Shown piece after piece: positions 2,090 to 60,547 of a stretch of DNA of 64,000 bases. The position numbers were made by a program, and so were the translations under genes. The notes beneath the pieces were generated by a model. That model had not been told where the DNA came from, made no database searches, and was given only the letters and a program-made list of their open reading frames with translations. This DNA comes from Clostridiales bacterium (GTDB lineage Bacteria; Bacillota; Desulfotomaculia; Desulfotomaculales; VENG01), in the NCBI GenBank assembly GCA_021736985.1, contig JAIPEW010000005.1, forward strand, positions 26,413-90,412, given 5' to 3'. Numbering within the stretch: the stretch's first letter is position 1; each line of letters starts with the position of its first letter.

Positions 2090-3196
2090 TTAATTTTTTT
2101 CGTACTGGTAATAAGCTGCACAGGCTCCTTCTGAAGAGACCATGCAAGGACCTACCGGATTGGCCGGTGTGCACTTGCGGGCAAATAAAGGGCATTCCGG
2201 GGGAGTGATTAAGCCCTGTAAAAGTTCGCCGCATCTGCATCCTTTAGGTTCAGGTGGTTCCTGTATATCTATGGAAAACCTGCGTGCTGCGTCGTAATGG
2301 CTGTATTTATCTTTTATTAAGAGTCCGCTATTTTCAATAAAACCAAATCCCCGCCAGGGTGCCTGTCCGCAGTAAAAACAGTTGTTAATTGCTTTTTGTG
2401 CTTCCGGGTTGCCGCTTTCTTTTACGGCCCAGCGGTAGGCATTAACAACTTCAGGCTCTTTTGAGATAATTCTGTCAAGCAGGGTATATATAGAATTAAG
2501 TATATCGACAGGTGTAAAACCGGTAATAACTGCCGGAATACCGTAATTGTCTCCAATAAAATTGAAAGGCTGCTTGCCAGTGGTTATACTGACGTGCCCG
2601 GGAAGAATAAAACCGTCCAGCGACATTTTATTGTTATTCAGCAGGGTGTCAATTGCAGGCGGCATTATTTTATTAGCCGGGTAGACGCTGAAATTATGAA
2701 TATTAAGTTCATATGCCTGTTGTATACCCAGGGCAACAAGGGGGGCAGTGGTTTCGAAGCCAACCCCTAAGAATATAATTTCTTGTTCCGGTTTTTCCCG
2801 GGCAAGTGCAGCAGCATCAGCAGGAGAATATACAATCTTAATGCTGGCTCCTGAAGCACGTTCTTTTTCCAGGGTAGTATGCAGCCCGGGGACGCGCAGC
2901 ATGTCCCCAAAAGTAGTTATTGTAACCCCTGGAATTCGGGACAGGGCTATCATTCGTTCCATGTCACCGGCAGAGGTTACGCAAACCGGGCAGCCGGGCC
3001 CGCTGCGAAGTTCCAATACCGCTGAAAACAGGCTGCGCAATCCAAATTTGGAGACTGCTGCAGTATGAGTACCGCATACTTCCATTAGCCTTACCGGGCG
3101 GCCGAGGTGTTGTGCTGCCTGGTTCGCTTTGTTTTTAATTTTTTTTATCATTAGCCTGCCAAGTTCAGGATCATTCAGCCTGTTTAGTGCCTTCAA
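2090..3196 (-). CDS. hypD: hydrogenase formation protein HypD
   Basis: 368 aa with MEVCGTHT, GPGCPVCV and a C-terminal GACAAYY-type Fe-S motif region. It overlaps hypC by 26 bp. Confidence 0.92.
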   Translation of the reverse strand: MKALNRLNDPELGRLMIKKIKNKANQAAQHLGRPVRLMEVCGTHTAAVSKFGLRSLFSAVLELRSGPGCPVCVTSAGDMERMIALSRIPGVTITTFGDMLRVPGLHTTLEKERASGASIKIVYSPADAAALAREKPEQEIIFLGVGFETTAPLVALGIQQAYELNIHNFSVYPANKIMPPAIDTLLNNNKMSLDGFILPGHVSITTGKQPFNFIGDNYGIPAVITGFTPVDILNSIYTLLDRIISKEPEVVNAYRWAVKESGNPEAQKAINNCFYCGQAPWRGFGFIENSGLLIKDKYSHYDAARRFSIDIQEPPEPKGCRCGELLQGLITPPECPLFARKCTPANPVGPCMVSSEGACAAYYQYEKN

Positions 3197-7845: not shown

Positions 7846-7870
7846 AAAAGGGCCCCGGGCCCTTTTTTCT
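7846..7870 (+). terminator. intrinsic terminator after the vanY-like gene
   Basis: aaaagggccccgggcccttttttc. Confidence 0.75.
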
Positions 7871-7889
7871 TTAATCCTGAAAAATCTAT

Positions 7890-8030
7890 GATCTGACATG
7901 TACCGGCGCTTTTCTTCGGCCTCAATCGCTTTTTGAATACGCCTCTGTACGTCCGCTCCGAGTACCACCGGCCTTTAAACGGTTGATGAAAGGTTTTCAT
8001 ACTTACGTTGTGACCAAAAAGTTCGTGAGG
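7890..8030 (-). repeat. GC-rich structured repeat module, 5'-arm-truncated copy U2
   Basis: It aligns with the right half of U1 (ctgacatgtaccggcgcttttcttcggcctca..gagtaccaccggcctttaaacggttgatgaaaggttttcatacttacgttgtgacc). The left closing-stem arm is missing. Confidence 0.8.
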
Positions 8031-8145
8031 GGTTAATTAGAAAATGTTAATTATGTGTTTTTATGCTTGTTTGTTCTGGAAGGTTTATGTTTATGCTTCA
8101 AGAATAATTATATAAATTTATTTAATTATTAAGAGGTGATAATTA

Positions 8146-38795: not shown

Positions 38796-39659
38796 GTGAA
38801 TAGAATAGTTTTTTTATTGACAGTACTGGTTGTGGTAATAATTGTATGTGCAGGTTGCAGCAAGCCAGTGATTGATACAAGTGTTGATGATACCGGTATT
38901 GAAGATATAAAAGTAGCTGTTAGTATTTTGCCGCAGGCCAGGTTTGTAGAAAAAATTGGTGGAGATAAGGTTAAAGTTCAGGTGATGATCCCACCCGGTG
39001 CTTCTCCTGTAACTTATGAGCCAACTCCAACCCAGTTAAAAAATCTAAGTCGAGCCGATATGTATGTCAGAGTAAAATGTTTACCGTTTGAAAAGGCATG
39101 GATGGGTAGAATTAAAAGTGCCAATGATAATATGCATATCATTGACTCTTCCATGGGAATTAAAATAATCAATAAGGACCCGCATATATGGCTTTCTCCA
39201 GTTCTTGTAAAGAAACAAGTGGAGCATATATATCAAGGTCTGGCTGAGATTGACCCGCAAAATAAAGATTATTATAAAAATAATAAAGAAAGATATGTCT
39301 CTGAGCTTGAAAAGTTAGACCGTGAAATAAAAAATGTTTTATCAGGGATTTCAAATAAAAAGTTTATAGTGTTCCACCCGTGCTGGGGGTATTTTGCAAG
39401 GGAGTATGGCTTAAAGCAAATTCCAGTAAAAACCGAAGGTAAGAAGTTAACTCCCCGGGATATAACCAGAGTTGTAGATAAAGCAAGATCAAGCCGTGTT
39501 AAAGTTATTATTGTTTCGCCGCAGCATGATACAAAGAGTTCAGAAGTAATAGCAAGAGAGATTGAAGGTGAAATTATATTAGCTAACCCGTTAGCGAAAG
39601 ATTACATTGAAAATATTAGACATTTTGCCGGTAAGCTGTCCAAACTAAATCGATCCTGA
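38796..39659 (+). CDS. znuA: metal (probably zinc) ABC transporter substrate-binding lipoprotein, ZnuA/TroA family
   Basis: Lipobox VCAGCSK plus DPHIWLSP and FHPCWGYFAREYGL motifs. Operon context with znuCB-zur. Confidence 0.8.
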   Translation: MNRIVFLLTVLVVVIIVCAGCSKPVIDTSVDDTGIEDIKVAVSILPQARFVEKIGGDKVKVQVMIPPGASPVTYEPTPTQLKNLSRADMYVRVKCLPFEKAWMGRIKSANDNMHIIDSSMGIKIINKDPHIWLSPVLVKKQVEHIYQGLAEIDPQNKDYYKNNKERYVSELEKLDREIKNVLSGISNKKFIVFHPCWGYFAREYGLKQIPVKTEGKKLTPRDITRVVDKARSSRVKVIIVSPQHDTKSSEVIAREIEGEIILANPLAKDYIENIRHFAGKLSKLNRS

Positions 39660-39704
39660 GCGTTTAGTTTGGCCTGTGAGGTAAACGAAGTGAACGAGGG
39701 GCAA

Positions 39705-39945
39705 TGGCAAGCCCTATGAGCTTCTTGCTCACAACGGAAAATGAAAATCTTTCATCAACTGCGTAAAGGCTGGTGGTACCCGGAGCGGACGTACGGAGGC
39801 GCATTTAAAGAGCGAATGAGGCAGAGAAAAAGCGCCGGTGTATGTCTGAGCGACTGGAGGAGCGAGTTTTCCGGTGCCCGGGGTCGATTGAGTACGAACA
39901 ATTTTATGTGCCGGAGTAGGGAGCGGAGAGTACCACCAGCCTAGC
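39705..39945 (+). repeat. GC-rich structured repeat module, full-length copy U3, in the znuA-znuC spacer
   Basis: Leader tgctcacaacggaaaatgaaaatctttcatcaactgcgtaaa, then a 12-bp closing stem of ggctggtggtac (39768-39779) and gtaccaccagcc (39930-39941). It is the reverse complement of U1. Confidence 0.85.
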
Positions 39946-39981
39946 AAAAACTAGAGTTTTCTGATCGCCCATGGGTCATGG

Positions 39982-40162
39982 CCCACAACGCTGAATGAAA
40001 ACTTTTCTGACAGCTGGGTGGAGGGTCGGGGCAAAGGGCAGAGGTGAGAAGTGGGAAATTAGATGGTGGAAAAAAGAAAAGGTCTACGCAGCAGATTTCC
40101 TCACACTTCTCACCTCCCATATCACACTTTGCAAATGACGGGCTATGCAACGCACCCAGACT
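39982..40162 (+). repeat. variant repeat module U4: same leader, different hairpin body
   Basis: The leader ccacaacgctgaatgaaaacttttctgacag matches the U3 leader. Closing stem ctgggtg (40014-40020) / cacccag (40153-40159). An inner ~19-bp hairpin pairs gaggtgagaagtgggaaat (40041-40059) with atttcctcacacttctcacctc (40095-40116). Confidence 0.7.
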
Positions 40163-40255
40163 TTACTACCTTCCGGAAATCCCCAGTTTCTTTGGATTTA
40201 TAGATTGTTAATTGTGCTTAAGCCAGAGTTTTTGAATTAAGGTAGGGGTTTTTAT

Positions 40256-40987
40256 ATGAAAAAATTAAACCGGGTAAACAGTGAAATTTTACGTTTAAAA
40301 AATATATGTGTTCAGTATAATAATGCTACTGTTCTGGAGAATATAAATCTATCTGTCTACAAAACGGATTTTTTAGGTGTTATTGGGCCTAATGGCGGAG
40401 GGAAAACTACATTACTTAAAGTAATGTTAGGATTAATAAGGCCTACTACGGGAAAGGTTGAATTTTTAGGTAATAATCCTGATAAAAAACAAAAGCATAT
40501 GGGTTATGTGCCTCAAAATTTTTATTTCGATAGAACTTTTCCAATAAGTGTACGGGATGTTGTGCTAATGGGACGGTTAGCCCGCGGGGGGCTTTTAAAA
40601 AAATTTAATGATAACGATAAAAAAATTGTTGATAATGCCCTGGAGAAAGTTGGAATCTATACGATAAAGGACAGGCAGATTGGACAGCTTTCAGGGGGAC
40701 AAATACAAAGGGTTTTAATTGCTAGGGCACTGGCAACTGAGCCGCAAATACTTTTTTTTGATGAACCCACGTCAAATATTGACAGGCGTAATCTAAAATT
40801 GATCTGTAGTTTGCTTAAAATTATAAACAAAAACATACCTATTGTTATAGTATCGCATGACATAGAATATATTTCTACTTTTGTTAATAAAATTGCATGT
40901 CTAAATAAAAGATTATTAAATAAAAATCTATGTGGAGTAAATAAGAAAACAATTGAATTTGCTTATAATTGTTCCGTGAATTTGTAA
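40256..40987 (+). CDS. znuC: zinc/metal ABC transporter ATPase
   Basis: Walker A GPNGGGKTT, signature SGGQIQR and Walker B LFFDEP. Confidence 0.85.
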   Translation: MKKLNRVNSEILRLKNICVQYNNATVLENINLSVYKTDFLGVIGPNGGGKTTLLKVMLGLIRPTTGKVEFLGNNPDKKQKHMGYVPQNFYFDRTFPISVRDVVLMGRLARGGLLKKFNDNDKKIVDNALEKVGIYTIKDRQIGQLSGGQIQRVLIARALATEPQILFFDEPTSNIDRRNLKLICSLLKIINKNIPIVIVSHDIEYISTFVNKIACLNKRLLNKNLCGVNKKTIEFAYNCSVNL

Positions 40988-41022
40988 ATCAGCTATTTTT
41001 TGGTAAAGAACAAAATGAGAAG

Positions 41023-41868
41023 ATGGTGAAGTTAAGATATATGATAGAAGCACTGCAGTATGAATTTATGAGAAATGCACTTGCAGCAGGTATACTTGCA
41101 AGTATAGCTTGTGGTATAGTAGGTTCTTATGTAGTCGTAAAAAGGATAGTGTTTATAAGTGGTGGGGTATCGCACAGCGCATATGGTGGAATAGGATTGG
41201 GCTGCTTGTTTGATTTTAACCCGGTTTTAGGGTCAACATTATTTAGCCTGGCAGCAGCATTGATAATTGGAGTTGTAAGCAAGGAGTCTAGCCAGCGCGA
41301 AGATACTGTTATTGGTGTTATATGGGCTATAGGCATGTCGCTAGGAATTATTTTTATAAGTATGAGTCCCGGGTATTCTGCAAATCTTTTTAGCTACTTA
41401 TTCGGAAATATTTTAACTGTACCTACGAGTGATATTTTTATTATGCTTGTACTTGATAGTCTTATTATCACCGTAGTGTTTCTTTTATACAATCATTTTT
41501 TAGCCCTGTGTTTTGACGAGGAATTTGCACTTCTTGTTAGTTATCCTCAAAAGTTATATCTCCTGCTTTTATGTTTGATTGCACTAACTGTTGTAATTTT
41601 GATTCGAGTAGTTGGAGTTATCCTGGTGATAGCAATGCTTACTATACCAGCAGCTATAGGTGCTCAATTTACTAATAATTTAAAGAAGATGATGTTTATT
41701 TCAACAATATTAGGGATTATTTTTACTACTGTTGGATTAAGCATATCTTATATTTTTAATATAGCCTCCGGTGCAACAATTATATTATTTTCAGGGATTA
41801 CTTATTTAATTTCTATAGGGGTAAGTTTTCTGTGGCAAAGAAGAAATTTTTCATGTAATAAACTTTAA
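41023..41868 (+). CDS. znuB: zinc/metal ABC transporter permease (ABC-3 family)
   Basis: Polytopic protein; ALQYEFMRNALAAGILASIACGIVGSYVV is the typical ZnuB/TroC N-terminus. The start could be 41023 or 41041; the track gives 40969. Confidence 0.85.
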   Translation: MVKLRYMIEALQYEFMRNALAAGILASIACGIVGSYVVVKRIVFISGGVSHSAYGGIGLGCLFDFNPVLGSTLFSLAAALIIGVVSKESSQREDTVIGVIWAIGMSLGIIFISMSPGYSANLFSYLFGNILTVPTSDIFIMLVLDSLIITVVFLLYNHFLALCFDEEFALLVSYPQKLYLLLLCLIALTVVILIRVVGVILVIAMLTIPAAIGAQFTNNLKKMMFISTILGIIFTTVGLSISYIFNIASGATIILFSGITYLISIGVSFLWQRRNFSCNKL

Positions 41869-42029
41869 TTTAAAATGCAGTTAATAATTTGTAAACCCAA
41901 AGGACCGCGAAATTCCGATAGGTAGTGGCCTAGCACTCAGCCTATCTTTACTGTAGGAAGAATAGGAGTAAAAGTATTTTTACCTGCTATTTAATACAGT
42001 TTTTTTAAACTACGCTGCAGTACTGAAAT

Positions 42030-42105
42030 GAAGGAAACCACCGGCCATCATCCAGCTATGAGAAAAGTTTTAATACTTTGTTGTGAGCAAAAAGCTCGTG
42101 GATGT
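42030..42105 (-). repeat. repeat module fragment U5 (leader plus one stem arm only)
   Basis: ggaaaccaccggcc..gagaaaagttttaatactttgttgtgagcaaaaagctcgtgga matches the leader end of U1/U2, including the extension caaaaagctcgtg shared with U2. Confidence 0.65.
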
Positions 42106-42160
42106 TTAATCAAAAACTCTAATTTTCTCGCGGATTTTATACATCAAGGAGTAATGTTTT

Positions 42161-42592
42161 GTGTTTAATGATTTAGAAAAAAAATTGGTACAAGAAGGTT
42201 ATAAAATTACAAAAAACAGGCGGGTTATACTGGAAGTATTTAATGAAACACCAGAAAGCTGGATAACTGCCCAGGATTTATTTGAAAAAGTATTAAATAA
42301 AAATCAAAAGATTAATTTCTCAACTGTGTATCGGAATCTGAATATGCTAACTAAAATAGGAATACTGTACCAGGTAAATAAAGAACAGGGATTGGGTTAT
42401 TACAGGCTAAATAATAATCAGAGTTACCACCATCACTTGATTTGTAAGTCATGCGGGAAAACCTGGAGAGTGCAATTTTGTCCTTTAAAAGAACTTGGGG
42501 TTGAGCATATTCAGGGTTTTACTATTGTAGACCATAAGTTTGAGATATACGGGTATTGCAGCGACTGTAAAAAACAAGGCAAAATTGATTGA
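42161..42592 (+). CDS. zur: Fur-family metalloregulator, probably Zur
   Basis: 143 aa with a winged-helix N-domain, HHHLICKSCGK and CSDC zinc-site motifs. It lies directly downstream of znuACB. Confidence 0.7.
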   Translation: MFNDLEKKLVQEGYKITKNRRVILEVFNETPESWITAQDLFEKVLNKNQKINFSTVYRNLNMLTKIGILYQVNKEQGLGYYRLNNNQSYHHHLICKSCGKTWRVQFCPLKELGVEHIQGFTIVDHKFEIYGYCSDCKKQGKID

Positions 42593-42617
42593 CGAACTAC
42601 TATATTAATGATACTAT
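42589..42617 (+). promoter_or_regulatory. sigma-A-type promoter for the riboswitch transcript
   Basis: TTGACG (42589-42594), a 17-nt spacer, then TACTAT (42612-42617). It overlaps the zur stop codon. Confidence 0.6.
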
Positions 42618-42629
42618 ATACAAAAGTTG

Positions 42630-42795
42630 AATTTGTATAGGTGCTTTAAAAGCTTAATAGGGAAACCGGTGTAAATCCGGTGCGGTCCCCGCCACTGTGA
42701 TGGGGAGGAACTTCATGTTAATGCCACTACCCAAGTTTGGGTGGGAAGGTATGAAGCTCCTGTGAACCTGAGCCAGTAGACCTGCCTTTATAGTT
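42630..42795 (+). promoter_or_regulatory. cobalamin (B12) riboswitch aptamer
   Basis: AATAGGGAAACCGGTGTAAATCCGGTGCGGTCCCCGCCACTGTGATGGGG .. GCCACTACCC..GGGTGGGAAGG .. GAGCCAGTAGACCTGCC (B12 box). All the hallmark blocks occur in the canonical order. Confidence 0.9.
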
Positions 42796-42859
42796 ATAAT
42801 GTATTTACCACTGCCTACGGGTGATAGGGAAATGGTTATTTTTATTGTTTTTATACAGT

Positions 42860-42900
42860 AAAAAAACCGGCGCCTCTAAGTGGGCCGGTTTTTATTTTTT
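42860..42900. terminator. strong bidirectional terminator between the riboswitch transcript and feoB
   Basis: aaaaaaaccggcgcctctaagtgggccggtttttattttttt. Confidence 0.8.
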
Positions 42901-42981
42901 TACAAGTTTATCCCATACTCTAAACTCATACATTTTAAAACTCGGTTATACTGCCGGGTCTTTTTTTTGTTTATAGTTGTA

Positions 42982-44370
42982 TTAAACTAATCCAAATCCT
43001 TTTGCCAGCAAGTTTATTATCATACATGTTACAATACCAACTGCAGTAGGTATTGCGATAGCTAAAAAGGTCCAGTACCAGCTGTGTTGTTCTTTTTGTA
43101 TAGTATACAAAGTAGTACCGCAAGGCCAGTGGCAAAGGGCAAAAACCATTGTACACAGTGCAGTAAGCCAGGTCCAACCGTTTTCATCTACGAGAAGATG
43201 GCGCAGGGCTTCTAAACTGCTTAGTTCTAACATCCCACTGCCTGATATATAGCTCATTATTAATATCGGAAAAACAATTTCATTTGCCGGTAAACCCAGT
43301 ATAAAGGCGGTTAATATGAAACCGTCCATCCCCATAAGCTGGGCAAATGGATTCAGCCAACTTGCAAAAGCTGCTAATAGACTTGTATCACCTACCATGG
43401 TGTTAGCCATTATCCAAACTATACCGCCTGCTGGAGCAGCTATAATCATAGCCCTTGTGAGTACGAATATTGTTCTGTCCAGTATTGAACGTACAATAAC
43501 TTCACCTATTTTAGGTTTTCTGTATGGAGGTAATTCTAAAGTAAAGGATGAAGGTACTCCTTTTAATAATGTTTTAGAAAGCAGCCAGGATATAAACAGG
43601 GTTATGGTAATGCCAAATACAACCAGGCCTGCTACTGTTAATGTTGCAATTATACTGCTGATGCTTGCGGCAACAGAGCCCCCGATAAAGATTGTAGCCA
43701 GGGCTATTAATATAGGGAATCTACCGTTGCAGGGAACAAAGTTGTTAGTAAGAATAGCTATTAATCTTTCCCGCGGTGATTCAATAATCCGGCAGGATAT
43801 AATACCTGCAGCATTACAGCCAAAGCCCATGCTCATTGTCAGTGCCTGCTTGCCGTGGGCCCCGGCTTTTTTAAAAAACCGGTCCATATTAAATGCCACC
43901 CGTGGTAAATAACCCAGGTCTTCTAAAAGAGTAAATATAGGAAAGAATATAGCCATGGGCGGCAGCATTACTGAGACTACCCAGGCCAGGCTACGGTAAA
44001 CACCCGTAACTAAAAAACCGCGCAACCATCCGGGAGCATTTAAAGCCATGAATACCTCTGTTAACCTGTCTTCAATCCAGAAAAGTCCTGTAGCTAACAT
44101 AGAAGACGGGACGTTTGCTCCTGCAATAGTTATCCAGAATACAGTTGTTAGAAGTGCTAGCATTATAGGAAAACCCCATATGGGCGAGGTTAAAATATTA
44201 TCTATTTTGCGGCTCCAATCTGTGCTTTTTTTATCTTCAACATATTGTGTATTGCTGGTAATGTTTTCTGCAGAACTGTAGATGCTTTTTACAATATTGT
44301 CCCTGACTTCATTTTGATTAGGACAACTTTTAGCTGCTTCATCTAAAAGTTGCCTAATTGGGGAACTCAT
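42982..44370 (-). CDS. feoB: ferrous iron transporter FeoB, membrane (permease) portion as a separate polypeptide
   Basis: 462 aa and polytopic, with FeoB gate-region motifs (GFGCNAAG, FVPCNGRFP). Its ATG overlaps the upstream stop (ATGA), with GGAGG 7 nt upstream. Confidence 0.85.
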   Translation of the reverse strand: MSSPIRQLLDEAAKSCPNQNEVRDNIVKSIYSSAENITSNTQYVEDKKSTDWSRKIDNILTSPIWGFPIMLALLTTVFWITIAGANVPSSMLATGLFWIEDRLTEVFMALNAPGWLRGFLVTGVYRSLAWVVSVMLPPMAIFFPIFTLLEDLGYLPRVAFNMDRFFKKAGAHGKQALTMSMGFGCNAAGIISCRIIESPRERLIAILTNNFVPCNGRFPILIALATIFIGGSVAASISSIIATLTVAGLVVFGITITLFISWLLSKTLLKGVPSSFTLELPPYRKPKIGEVIVRSILDRTIFVLTRAMIIAAPAGGIVWIMANTMVGDTSLLAAFASWLNPFAQLMGMDGFILTAFILGLPANEIVFPILIMSYISGSGMLELSSLEALRHLLVDENGWTWLTALCTMVFALCHWPCGTTLYTIQKEQHSWYWTFLAIAIPTAVGIVTCMIINLLAKGFGLV

Positions 44371-60212: not shown

Positions 60213-60547
60213 TTCATTGAAATTTTTACGGACTTTTAGCTCACAATAGAGCAAAAAAATTTTACTAATGCTTTTGTGCTGCTGCACAGTAAGCTTGACC
60301 TGGTACTCAGTAAAATATATTAGACTTTTAATTGTTTTGTCTTTTGTGATAGCAGGATTACCTGGCTGTTTTATTTTTATGAGGCTTGCTCTGCCGCAAA
60401 AGAGTTTTTACGCTTTATTGCGGTCCAAAAGCCGTGGGCATTTAATTAATTACAACTGTATAATAAAGTTTCACAAAAATATTAATAGGAGTATACATAT
60501 AATGCTAAAGATAAATAAAATTATGTTTTTTTGAATGGAGGAAGACA

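Follow-up and report, generated by a model that had tools for sequence, protein, structure and literature searches.

A composite intergenic repeat with a leader shared by three phyla fills the znuA–znuC spacer of a Desulfotomaculales bacterium

Introduction

What fills the 596-nt gap (39660–40255) that separates znuA from znuC in a Desulfotomaculales genome, when related genomes leave only a short spacer between the same genes? We addressed this question in a 64,000-nt stretch of DNA from a Clostridiales bacterium (GenBank assembly GCA_021736985.1, contig JAIPEW010000005.1, positions 26,413 to 90,412 of the forward strand), which is referred to below as the window and supplies all coordinates. 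Sporulation genes are present in the source genome. Two units, U3 and U4, lie head-to-tail at 39705–40240 and occupy nearly all of the gap. Each begins with a leader of about 55 nt that contains two hairpins, is conserved across three phyla and occurs in multiple copies. On balance, we favor the reading that the units belong to a non-coding, non-autonomous composite interspersed repeat, comparable to BOX and to bacterial interspersed mosaic elements (BIMEs), that is mobilized in trans and whose hairpins would act as a barrier in mRNA.

Results

Organization and folding of the units

The spacer has a GC content of 0.47–0.54 in 200-nt windows, compared with 0.365 for the whole window, in agreement with a first-pass annotation, made from the sequence alone, that had described the gap as GC-rich. 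The shared leader, closing stems and repeats reported in that annotation are present in the DNA, and the two modules it delineated are real. Their extents had been drawn too short, as the leader begins about 15 nt further upstream with a hairpin (P1) and the unit continues into a conserved 3' tail. The order of parts in a unit is the P1 hairpin, an invariant CACAAC followed by five bases, the palindrome ATGAAAA..TTTTC (P2), a long GC-rich body, and the tail AGAGTTTTYTGAT; an upstream repeat ahead of P1 is an optional part.

The leaders of U3 and U4 share 78% identity (39727–39753 and 39981–40007). In U3, an 11-nt linker separates P2 from the body, and the body is closed by the 13-nt stem AGGCTGGTGGTAC/GTACCACCAGCCT (39767–39779/39930–39942; 100% complementary). 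The body of U4 is bounded by the arms CTGGGTG/CACCCAG at 40014–40020/40153–40159. Its inner stem, earlier given as about 19 bp at 40041–40059/40095–40116, is present as a 16-nt stem at 40041–40056/40101–40116 with 94% complementarity. RNA folding yielded −83.6 kcal/mol for the U3 module (z −3.6), −64.9 kcal/mol for the U4 module (z −2.8) and −203.9 kcal/mol for the whole spacer (z −2.95).

The palindrome AUGAAAA/UUUUC has its 3' half repeated directly in the tail (..UUUUC..), which is able to pair with ATGAAAA. The U3 tail is also complementary to GAAAACT of U4 (39997–40003), and the tail recurs 3' of other copies. In the minimum free energy fold of both full-length type A copies, tail included, the GAAAA of P2 pairs with the TTTTC of the tail and encloses the entire body, which may accordingly be viewed as a variable apex of the P2 helix.

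Copies in the source genome

A search of the window with the leader pattern CACAAC-N4-6-ATKAAAA-N0-2-YTTTC returned five matches, compared with 0.00 in 100 shuffles, and a covariance model built from 45 leaders recovered the identical five copies (E 6e-10 to 1e-4). Three of them lie outside the spacer. These had been proposed as related copies at about 1845–2068, 7890–8030 and 42030–42105, and all three proved to be real and on the minus strand. The second has an internal deletion but retains its tail, and the interval proposed for the third covers only the leader of a unit of about 240 nt (about 41880–42120). U3 is 87% identical over 238 nt to the copy at 1828–2065. That copy, with full extent 1822–2086, parts hypD (2090–3196) from hypE (751–1758) in a hydrogenase-maturation operon and has the same orientation as the genes.

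Two further copies were found in the next 9 kb of the contig, which brings the firm copies to seven over about 73 kb; at least three unrelated body types are represented among them. The copy at 41880–42120 is homologous over about 185 nt to one of these two (L224 8570–8765, outside the window), and the other has a third, unrelated body with a 15-bp closing stem followed by GAGATTTCGAATC. Two leader-like relics at 60.2–60.4 kb did not rise above noise in the covariance-model search (E about 0.9–1.4). They lie about 130 nt apart (60219–60446) in the intergenic DNA from which a phosphate-permease-like gene and an unannotated open reading frame (ORF) of 346 aa diverge, and in one of them an ATGAAAA-like run directly abuts a tail-like TTTTACTAATGC, so that no body is present.

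Logan contigs of SRR12088346 from the same organism (L002 and L226) stop short of znuC by 136 nt and of hypE by 115 nt, respectively. Since these ends fall inside element copies, the repeat fragments short-read assemblies as a high-copy repeat would, which is a practical consequence for any such assembly of the source organism.

Lineage-specific insertion at the znu locus

The gene order znuA-znuC-znuB-zur is kept in the three nearest available relatives, whose ZnuA proteins are 54–60% identical to that of the window. Their znuA–znuC spacers measure 28, 68 and 22 nt and their znuB–zur spacers 59, 68 and 28 nt, and no leader match was detected in about 50 kb of these three relatives. The corresponding spacers in the window are 596 and 292 nt. 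Because the spacers of the relatives are short and free of the element, those of the window represent lineage-specific insertions, and we hold it to be highly probable that the spacer units arose by secondary insertion of a dispersed repeat.

Conservation of the leader across phyla

To our strict pattern, GCTCACAAC-N4-6-ATGAAAA-N0-2-YTTTC, 22 loci corresponded in a scan of one genome per species from 185,579 species. The 5' arm of P1 (cATGAG), which lies outside the search pattern, was found at the correct spacing in 20 of the 22. The hosts included filamentous cyanobacteria (Coleofasciculaceae with three loci in one genome, Symploca with two, Microcoleus, Allocoleopsis, and Leptolyngbyaceae), Desulfobacterota-like organisms (a Thermodesulfobacteriota metagenome-assembled genome (MAG) with six loci, another deltaproteobacterial MAG with two, Desulfobacteraceae, and Syntrophobacteraceae), and, within Bacillota, one Robertmurraya (Bacillaceae) MAG. 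A looser pattern applied to metagenomes gave at least about 18 true members, as judged by a leader hidden Markov model (HMM), among 120 matches listed; these also carry the P1 5' arm and, among the matches listed, come from cyanobacterial and deltaproteobacterial lineages. Because exact patterns were used, this census underestimates the distribution. Alignment of 45 cores revealed that CACAAC and most of ATGAAAA are invariant, with eleven invariant positions across the three phyla.

Beyond the leader, no similarity was found between bodies of different phyla. The earlier description of a dispersed family whose members combine one common leader with interchangeable structured bodies is thus borne out by at least three unrelated bodies in one genome and by others in other phyla. 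Units with no body, or with a body of only 10 nt, exist as well (L088, L089), and in one orthologous locus pair the leader is the same and the body modules are different. One Desulfobacteraceae genome has REP-like palindromes (repetitive extragenic palindromes) 3' of the leader.

Several features of the bodies were observed besides. Cyanobacterial bodies (L084, L085, L172, L161, and others) contain two to six heptamers (TGACTCC, ACTCCCT), the number varying among copies. In a MAG267-like deltaproteobacterial lineage, the body is a hairpin of about 190 nt with further repeat modules, and CTGACCC/CTGATCC heptamers stand ahead of the tail. Bodies of this lineage (L091–L097, L104, L137, L152, L155, and L201) are mosaics of independent repeat modules, for example ttccccctttgaagggggcc and gggccgatgagggcaaaaggcccctaca, and such modules are also found as leader-free fragments (for example, L097 2620–2750). 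Intergenic heptamer repeats (TAACTGA) that occur across phyla and have no known mechanism have been described in another study (PMC4679880), with no established link to the heptamers of this element.

None of the 50 copies examined lies inside an ORF, and their neighbors are ordinary housekeeping genes. Relative to the upstream gene, 17 have the same and 20 the opposite orientation; relative to the downstream gene, the counts are 21 and 23. Tandem arrays are frequent and terminate in a solo TTTTC repeat, the upstream repeat is missing in about half of the copies, and decayed and truncated copies are common.

Covariation and strand evidence

P1 is paired in 89.9% of cells across the 45 cores and contains 8 double-change cells, values reached by 0 of 500 shuffles. 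The double changes include UGAAC/GUUCA, UGACC/GGUCA, UGCC/GGCA, and UGGG/CCCA, the last in U4. The copies are not confined to the window, extending into the adjacent 9 kb and into other phyla, and their P1 covaries, both of which the first-pass annotation had left to be checked. Between U3 and the copy at 1822–2086, three compensatory double changes were found in the body, of which one, U:A to C:G, affects the closing stem. The half-sites of P2, GAAA(A) and (T)TTTC, occur in 42 of the 45 cores and are 0–4 nt apart.

Other measurements concern the strand and the form in which the leader would be recognized. Departures from pairing in P1 comprise 11 A·C and 10 G·U, and compensations are equally numerous when the opposite strand of the type A pair is folded. 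Many P2 palindromes have a loop too short for an RNA hairpin, often 0–2 nt. Hairpin loops vary from 0 to 9 nt overall, and that of P1 from 3 to 9 nt. Such variation in the loop lengths of P1 and P2 speaks for recognition of a folded single strand and against that of a fixed double-strand dimer site.

Tests for coding capacity, RNA families, and known mobile elements

We considered whether the units encode protein. In two comparisons between copies, ORFs beginning at the conserved ATG had synonymous to nonsynonymous codon differences of 1:16 and 2:8, the ORF of the 1822–2086 copy stops after 8 codons, and halfway through the body an indel of 1 nt shifts the frame. Two ORFs from the conserved ATG (67 and 47 aa) and two on the other strand (72 and 69 aa) had no Pfam match, and a coding function was rejected.

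The Rfam scan that had been recommended was run with Rfam 15. In the spacer nothing reached the gathering threshold, and at E ≤10 only chance miRNA-like matches appeared; the cyanobacterial and deltaproteobacterial units gave nothing relevant even at E ≤10. A tRNA/tmRNA scan returned none. Searches by blastn of the spacer against plasmid and phage collections, and of a cyanobacterial unit against plasmids, found nothing, and the 74 matches of the leader pattern in viral contigs were all chance matches according to the leader HMM. Literature searches by sequence words and keywords returned no description of the element. The opinion of the first-pass annotation that the repeat could not be placed in a known family thus holds for Rfam and for the phage and plasmid collections. 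To the leader-hairpin-tail architecture with interchangeable bodies and cross-phylum spread, nothing matching was found in Rfam, in these collections or in the literature searched; the composite intergenic repeat is, as a kind, known.

No promoter-like or terminator-like consensus site was found in the znuA–znuC gap. An outward promoter made up of the heptamer tracts and TATTTT/TATAAA was set aside for its poor spacing. A role as regulator of its own neighbors was also rejected, the 50 copies examined being all intergenic, randomly oriented and flanked by housekeeping genes.

The first-pass annotation had also suggested a MITE (miniature inverted-repeat transposable element), a proposal that fails in the strict sense. 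The ends of a unit (5' ..TATGAGCTT.., 3' ..AGAGTTTTCTGAT) are not reverse complements and so do not form terminal inverted repeats; the perfect inverted repeats of the units are internal and close the body. No copy-specific target-site duplication was found at the flanks of U3/U4 or of the copies at 1822–2086 and 7869–8047. The TTTTC repeat is identical in all copies of a lineage, and therefore belongs either to the element or to a fixed target. Like MITEs, the units are small, non-coding, multi-copy, and absent from the orthologous sites of relatives.

Genes that could mobilize the units were sought around them. No tnpA, tnpB or iscB was present in the window or beside 50 family members, and neither the window nor the DNA flanking it contained a transposase, an integrase or a reverse transcriptase. 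Among 111 neighboring ORFs, no transposase occurred in the 25 commonest shared families listed, a survey that may have overlooked single genes. Between leader and tail, none of the leader-positive copies contains a real gene, and the candidates for an autonomous parent among the leader-pattern matches were rejected, since their long ORFs were chance matches at ordinary gene starts, for example that of a chemotaxis receptor.

The defining features of other systems were examined likewise. A conserved P1 stands at the left end only, with no similar partner hairpin at the other end as in palindrome-associated transposable elements (PATEs) of the IS200/IS605 group. The GTAG or CGTC head of REP/BIME is found in none of the 45 aligned cores, in which P1 reads cATGAGC-loop-GCTCAC and is followed by AAC, and about 85 kb of the source genome that was read contains no gene for a REP-associated tyrosine transposase (RAYT; Y1 HUH). 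Compared with integron attC sites, TCACAAC deviates from RYYYAAC, U3 and U4 contain no GTTGTGA partner, and no integrase was found. As for CRISPR, the bodies range from 0 to about 400 nt and are themselves repeated and structured, and no cas genes were found. A lac-operator half-site and a CodY box, suggested by the resemblance of GCTCACAA and of the tail, were set aside in view of the variable hairpin loops and cross-phylum hosts, which speak against a double-strand dimer site. GCTCACAA, formed by the right arm of P1 and the following bases in all leaders (39727–39735 in U3), is the same as one half-site in the symmetric lac operator (AATTGTGAGC/GCTCACAATT); given that the hairpin loop ranges between 3 and 9 nt, we take this match to be a coincidence.

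Features of the locus

The coordinates of the units, their parts and the neighboring genes are collected in Table 1.

Table 1. Positions of repeat units, their parts and flanking znu genes in the window
Feature	Position	Strand	Remarks
Type A copy, full length, hypD/hypE gap	1822–2086	−	Covariance-model E 1.3e-4
Type A copy, body internally deleted	7869–8047	−	E 3e-8; leader, upstream repeat and tail retained
znuA, zinc ABC transporter substrate-binding protein	38796–39659	+	Product matches PF01297 ZnuA; upstream of spacer
U3, type A, leader, body and tail complete	39705–39965	+	Covariance-model match 39705–39759, E 1.7e-9
U3 hairpin P1, UGAGC-uucuu-GCUCA	39717–39731	+	CACAAC next, 39730–39735
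U3 palindrome P2, ATGAAA-atc-TTTCAT	39741–39755	+	5' half ATGAAAA is the invariant "anti-tail"
U3 body, long branched GC-rich hairpin	39767–39942	+	Perfect 13-bp closing stem
U3 tail AGAGTTTTCTGAT	39953–39965	+	Doubles as upstream repeat of U4
U4, type B-like	39966–40240	+	Leader and tail of U3, other body; covariance-model match 39960–40013, E 3.8e-8
U4 P1	39972–39985		
U4 CACAAC	39984–39989		
U4 P2	39997–40007		
U4 body	40014–40159		
U4 tail AGAGTTTTTGAAT	40225–40237		Ends 18 nt ahead of znuC start codon
znuC, ABC ATPase	40256–40987	+	Product matches PF00005 ABC_tran; downstream of spacer
znuB	40969–41868		Next after znuC in gene order
Type B copy, about 240 nt, filling znuB–zur spacer	41880–42120	−	Leader match 42056–42110, E 6.3e-10; 3' boundary tentative
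zur, FUR-family regulator gene	42161–42592		After znuB
Decayed leader-like relic, weak, inverted relative to the next	60219–60277	+	nhmmer E 8.5e-4
Decayed leader-like relic, weak	60393–60446	−	nhmmer E 3.3e-3

The sole Rfam match in the window at the gathering threshold lies elsewhere than the spacer and is a cobalamin riboswitch, apparently orphan (42622–42803, 120.8 bits), with a promoter-like site at 42589–42617. Terminator-like hairpins with T runs follow 3' of it at about 42860–42900 and 42940–42968, with no convincing ORF. On the other strand, feoB (42982–44370) presents its 3' end to the riboswitch, which points at it and may control a small or antisense RNA.

Discussion

Proposed mechanism and its consequences

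If the units are a repeat mobilized in trans, the leader and tail would be the parts recognized by a mobilizing enzyme encoded elsewhere in the genome, probably in the form of a folded single strand, and the body would be an expandable apex of the P2 helix. A single-strand transposase of the HUH/Y1 type is one candidate for the mobilizer, a rather doubtful one, and none of the defining features of IS200/IS605 or RAYT elements was found. Since the gap has no promoter or terminator and the elements lie inside operons (znuA/znuC, hypD/hypE), they would be transcribed with the polycistronic mRNAs, U3 and U4 within that of znuACB. There, the stable hairpins could form a barrier to 3'-exonucleases or a site of endonuclease processing, favoring the mRNA of znuA over that of znuCB.

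Copies of the element interrupt two operons, between znuA and znuCB and between hypD and hypE, and part one operon-regulator pair at znuB|zur. The transcripts concerned acquire hairpins of −65 to −100 kcal/mol, and relative gene expression is therefore likely altered. As a rule, a small interspersed repeat does not extend beyond one species or genus. A non-coding module whose primary sequence persists in three phyla implies either shared machinery that moves horizontally or a conserved function. The covariance model and the approximately 50 examples make both options testable.

Weighing the explanations

Several points weigh against the repeat reading. Terminal inverted repeats are missing from the units, as is a clear target-site duplication. 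No mobilizing gene, autonomous parent or polymorphism between empty and filled sites was found, and mobility rests on distant relatives only. The copy count comes from about 73 kb, and the copy number across the source genome is extrapolated from there. The effect of the hairpins on mRNA, by which the message of the upstream binding protein would be favored, is argued by analogy, and we hold it to be possible rather than probable. Finally, primary-sequence conservation over 55 nt across phyla is strong and unusual for a passive repeat; it fits a functional RNA or a protein-binding site just as well.

This last point leads to a structured non-coding RNA family, in which the leader would be a functional domain (protein-binding, processing or catalytic core), the bodies variable expansion segments, and the multiplicity a product of duplication and horizontal transfer. 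Eleven invariant positions over three phyla, a covarying P1, and body helices kept by compensatory changes agree with such a family, as does a leader strand that folds more stably than its complement (−83.6 vs −69.8 and −64.9 vs −59.1 kcal/mol). Structured RNAs typically stand out as GC-rich islands where the genome is AT-rich, and the degree of primary-sequence conservation across phyla exceeds that of the usual passive repeats. However, Rfam offers no match at E ≤10 and the spacer no promoter-like or terminator-like signal, orientation is random with respect to flanking transcription, and decayed or truncated copies are common. P1 lacks the wobble asymmetry of an RNA helix (10 G·U vs 11 A·C), the complementary strand is equally compensated, and the P2 loop is often 0–2 nt, which is impossible for an RNA hairpin. 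We regard an RNA family as unlikely, though as a serious alternative in view of that conservation. Equally unlikely, in our estimate, is that the 55-nt leader is the recognition or catalytic core of a new class of mobile non-coding element, moving between Bacillota, Cyanobacteriota, and Desulfobacterota with arbitrary hairpins as "cargo" at the tip of its second helix and mobilized by a recombinase family so far not linked to it or through an RNA intermediate.

Cassettes moved by site-specific recombination in the manner of integron attC sites are a more remote prospect, which we consider very improbable. The TTTTC repeat would be the crossover core, AUGAAAA the inverse core and the hairpin the variable region, with arrays growing by insertion at an existing core. 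The succession of repeat, content, inverse repeat, variable hairpin and repeat is that of an integrated cassette, tandem arrays close with a solo repeat, and the hosts include Desulfobacterota and filamentous cyanobacteria. Yet the RYYYAAC/GTTRRRY boxes are absent, no integrase lies nearby, the "content" is always the P1 hairpin and never a gene, and the upstream repeat is missing from roughly half of the copies. The position of the units directly upstream of znuC, with the U4 tail 18 nt before the ATG, would suit a locus-specific regulatory leader of znuCB, such as a zinc-responsive or attenuator RNA. We give this scarcely any credence, because units also separate hypD from hypE, stand antisense in the znuB–zur spacer and adjoin unrelated genes in other phyla, and because the relatives have no such spacer and the units no terminator. 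The composite interspersed repeat remains the reading we favor.

Comparison with known systems

Bacterial MITEs, such as Correia, Nezha and RUP elements and Chunjie in Geobacter, which is found within an operon, resemble the units in being small, non-coding, multi-copy, folded, intergenic, and tolerated in operons. To our knowledge, no insertion sequence (IS) has ends that match the units. MITEs are defined by terminal inverted repeats and a target-site duplication (PMC3049150) and are AT-rich, whereas the units are GC-rich and have neither. IS200/IS605-derived PATEs and omega-RNA-bearing ends share with the units a hairpin-based makeup and the lack of terminal inverted repeats and of an obvious target duplication; like them, the units would be recognized as a folded single strand. 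IS200/IS605 elements carry similar hairpins at both ends, whereas in the units the conserved P1 occurs at the left end only, no tnpA or tnpB is nearby, and no family of the Rfam library scored. In attC sites and clusters of attC sites lacking integron integrases (CALIN arrays), a conserved inverse core and core surround a hairpin of variable length and tandem arrays form, as in the units; those systems have consensus boxes, an integrase and gene cassettes, and the units lack all three.

REP/BIME sequences are palindromic mosaics that lie between the genes for binding proteins and for membrane or ATPase components of ABC transporters (malE–malF, hisJ–hisQ), and their hairpins protect the upstream mRNA. 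The units are likewise mosaics of palindromic modules in an ABC-transporter operon, placed after the binding-protein gene. BIMEs are composite, and the effects of BIME, ERIC and Correia elements are comparable to the mRNA barrier considered here (PMC3049150). According to one account, the REP unit measures 20–40 bp and has a GTAG or CGTC head (PMC3733652). REPs thus differ in being short, headed and linked to RAYTs, whereas the units span 170–290 nt and their P1 has neither head.

BOX elements of Streptococcus pneumoniae have boxA and boxC as end modules and a middle of tandem boxB modules, and are confined to S. pneumoniae, S. mitis, and S. suis; in the units, the middle consists of unrelated hairpins, a two-hairpin leader and a direct-repeat tail form the ends, and the distribution crosses phyla. 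The likeness, which is one of architecture only, lies in a composite, intergenic, base-paired element with conserved ends and a variable middle that is co-transcribed and has no transposase of its own (PMC3049150).

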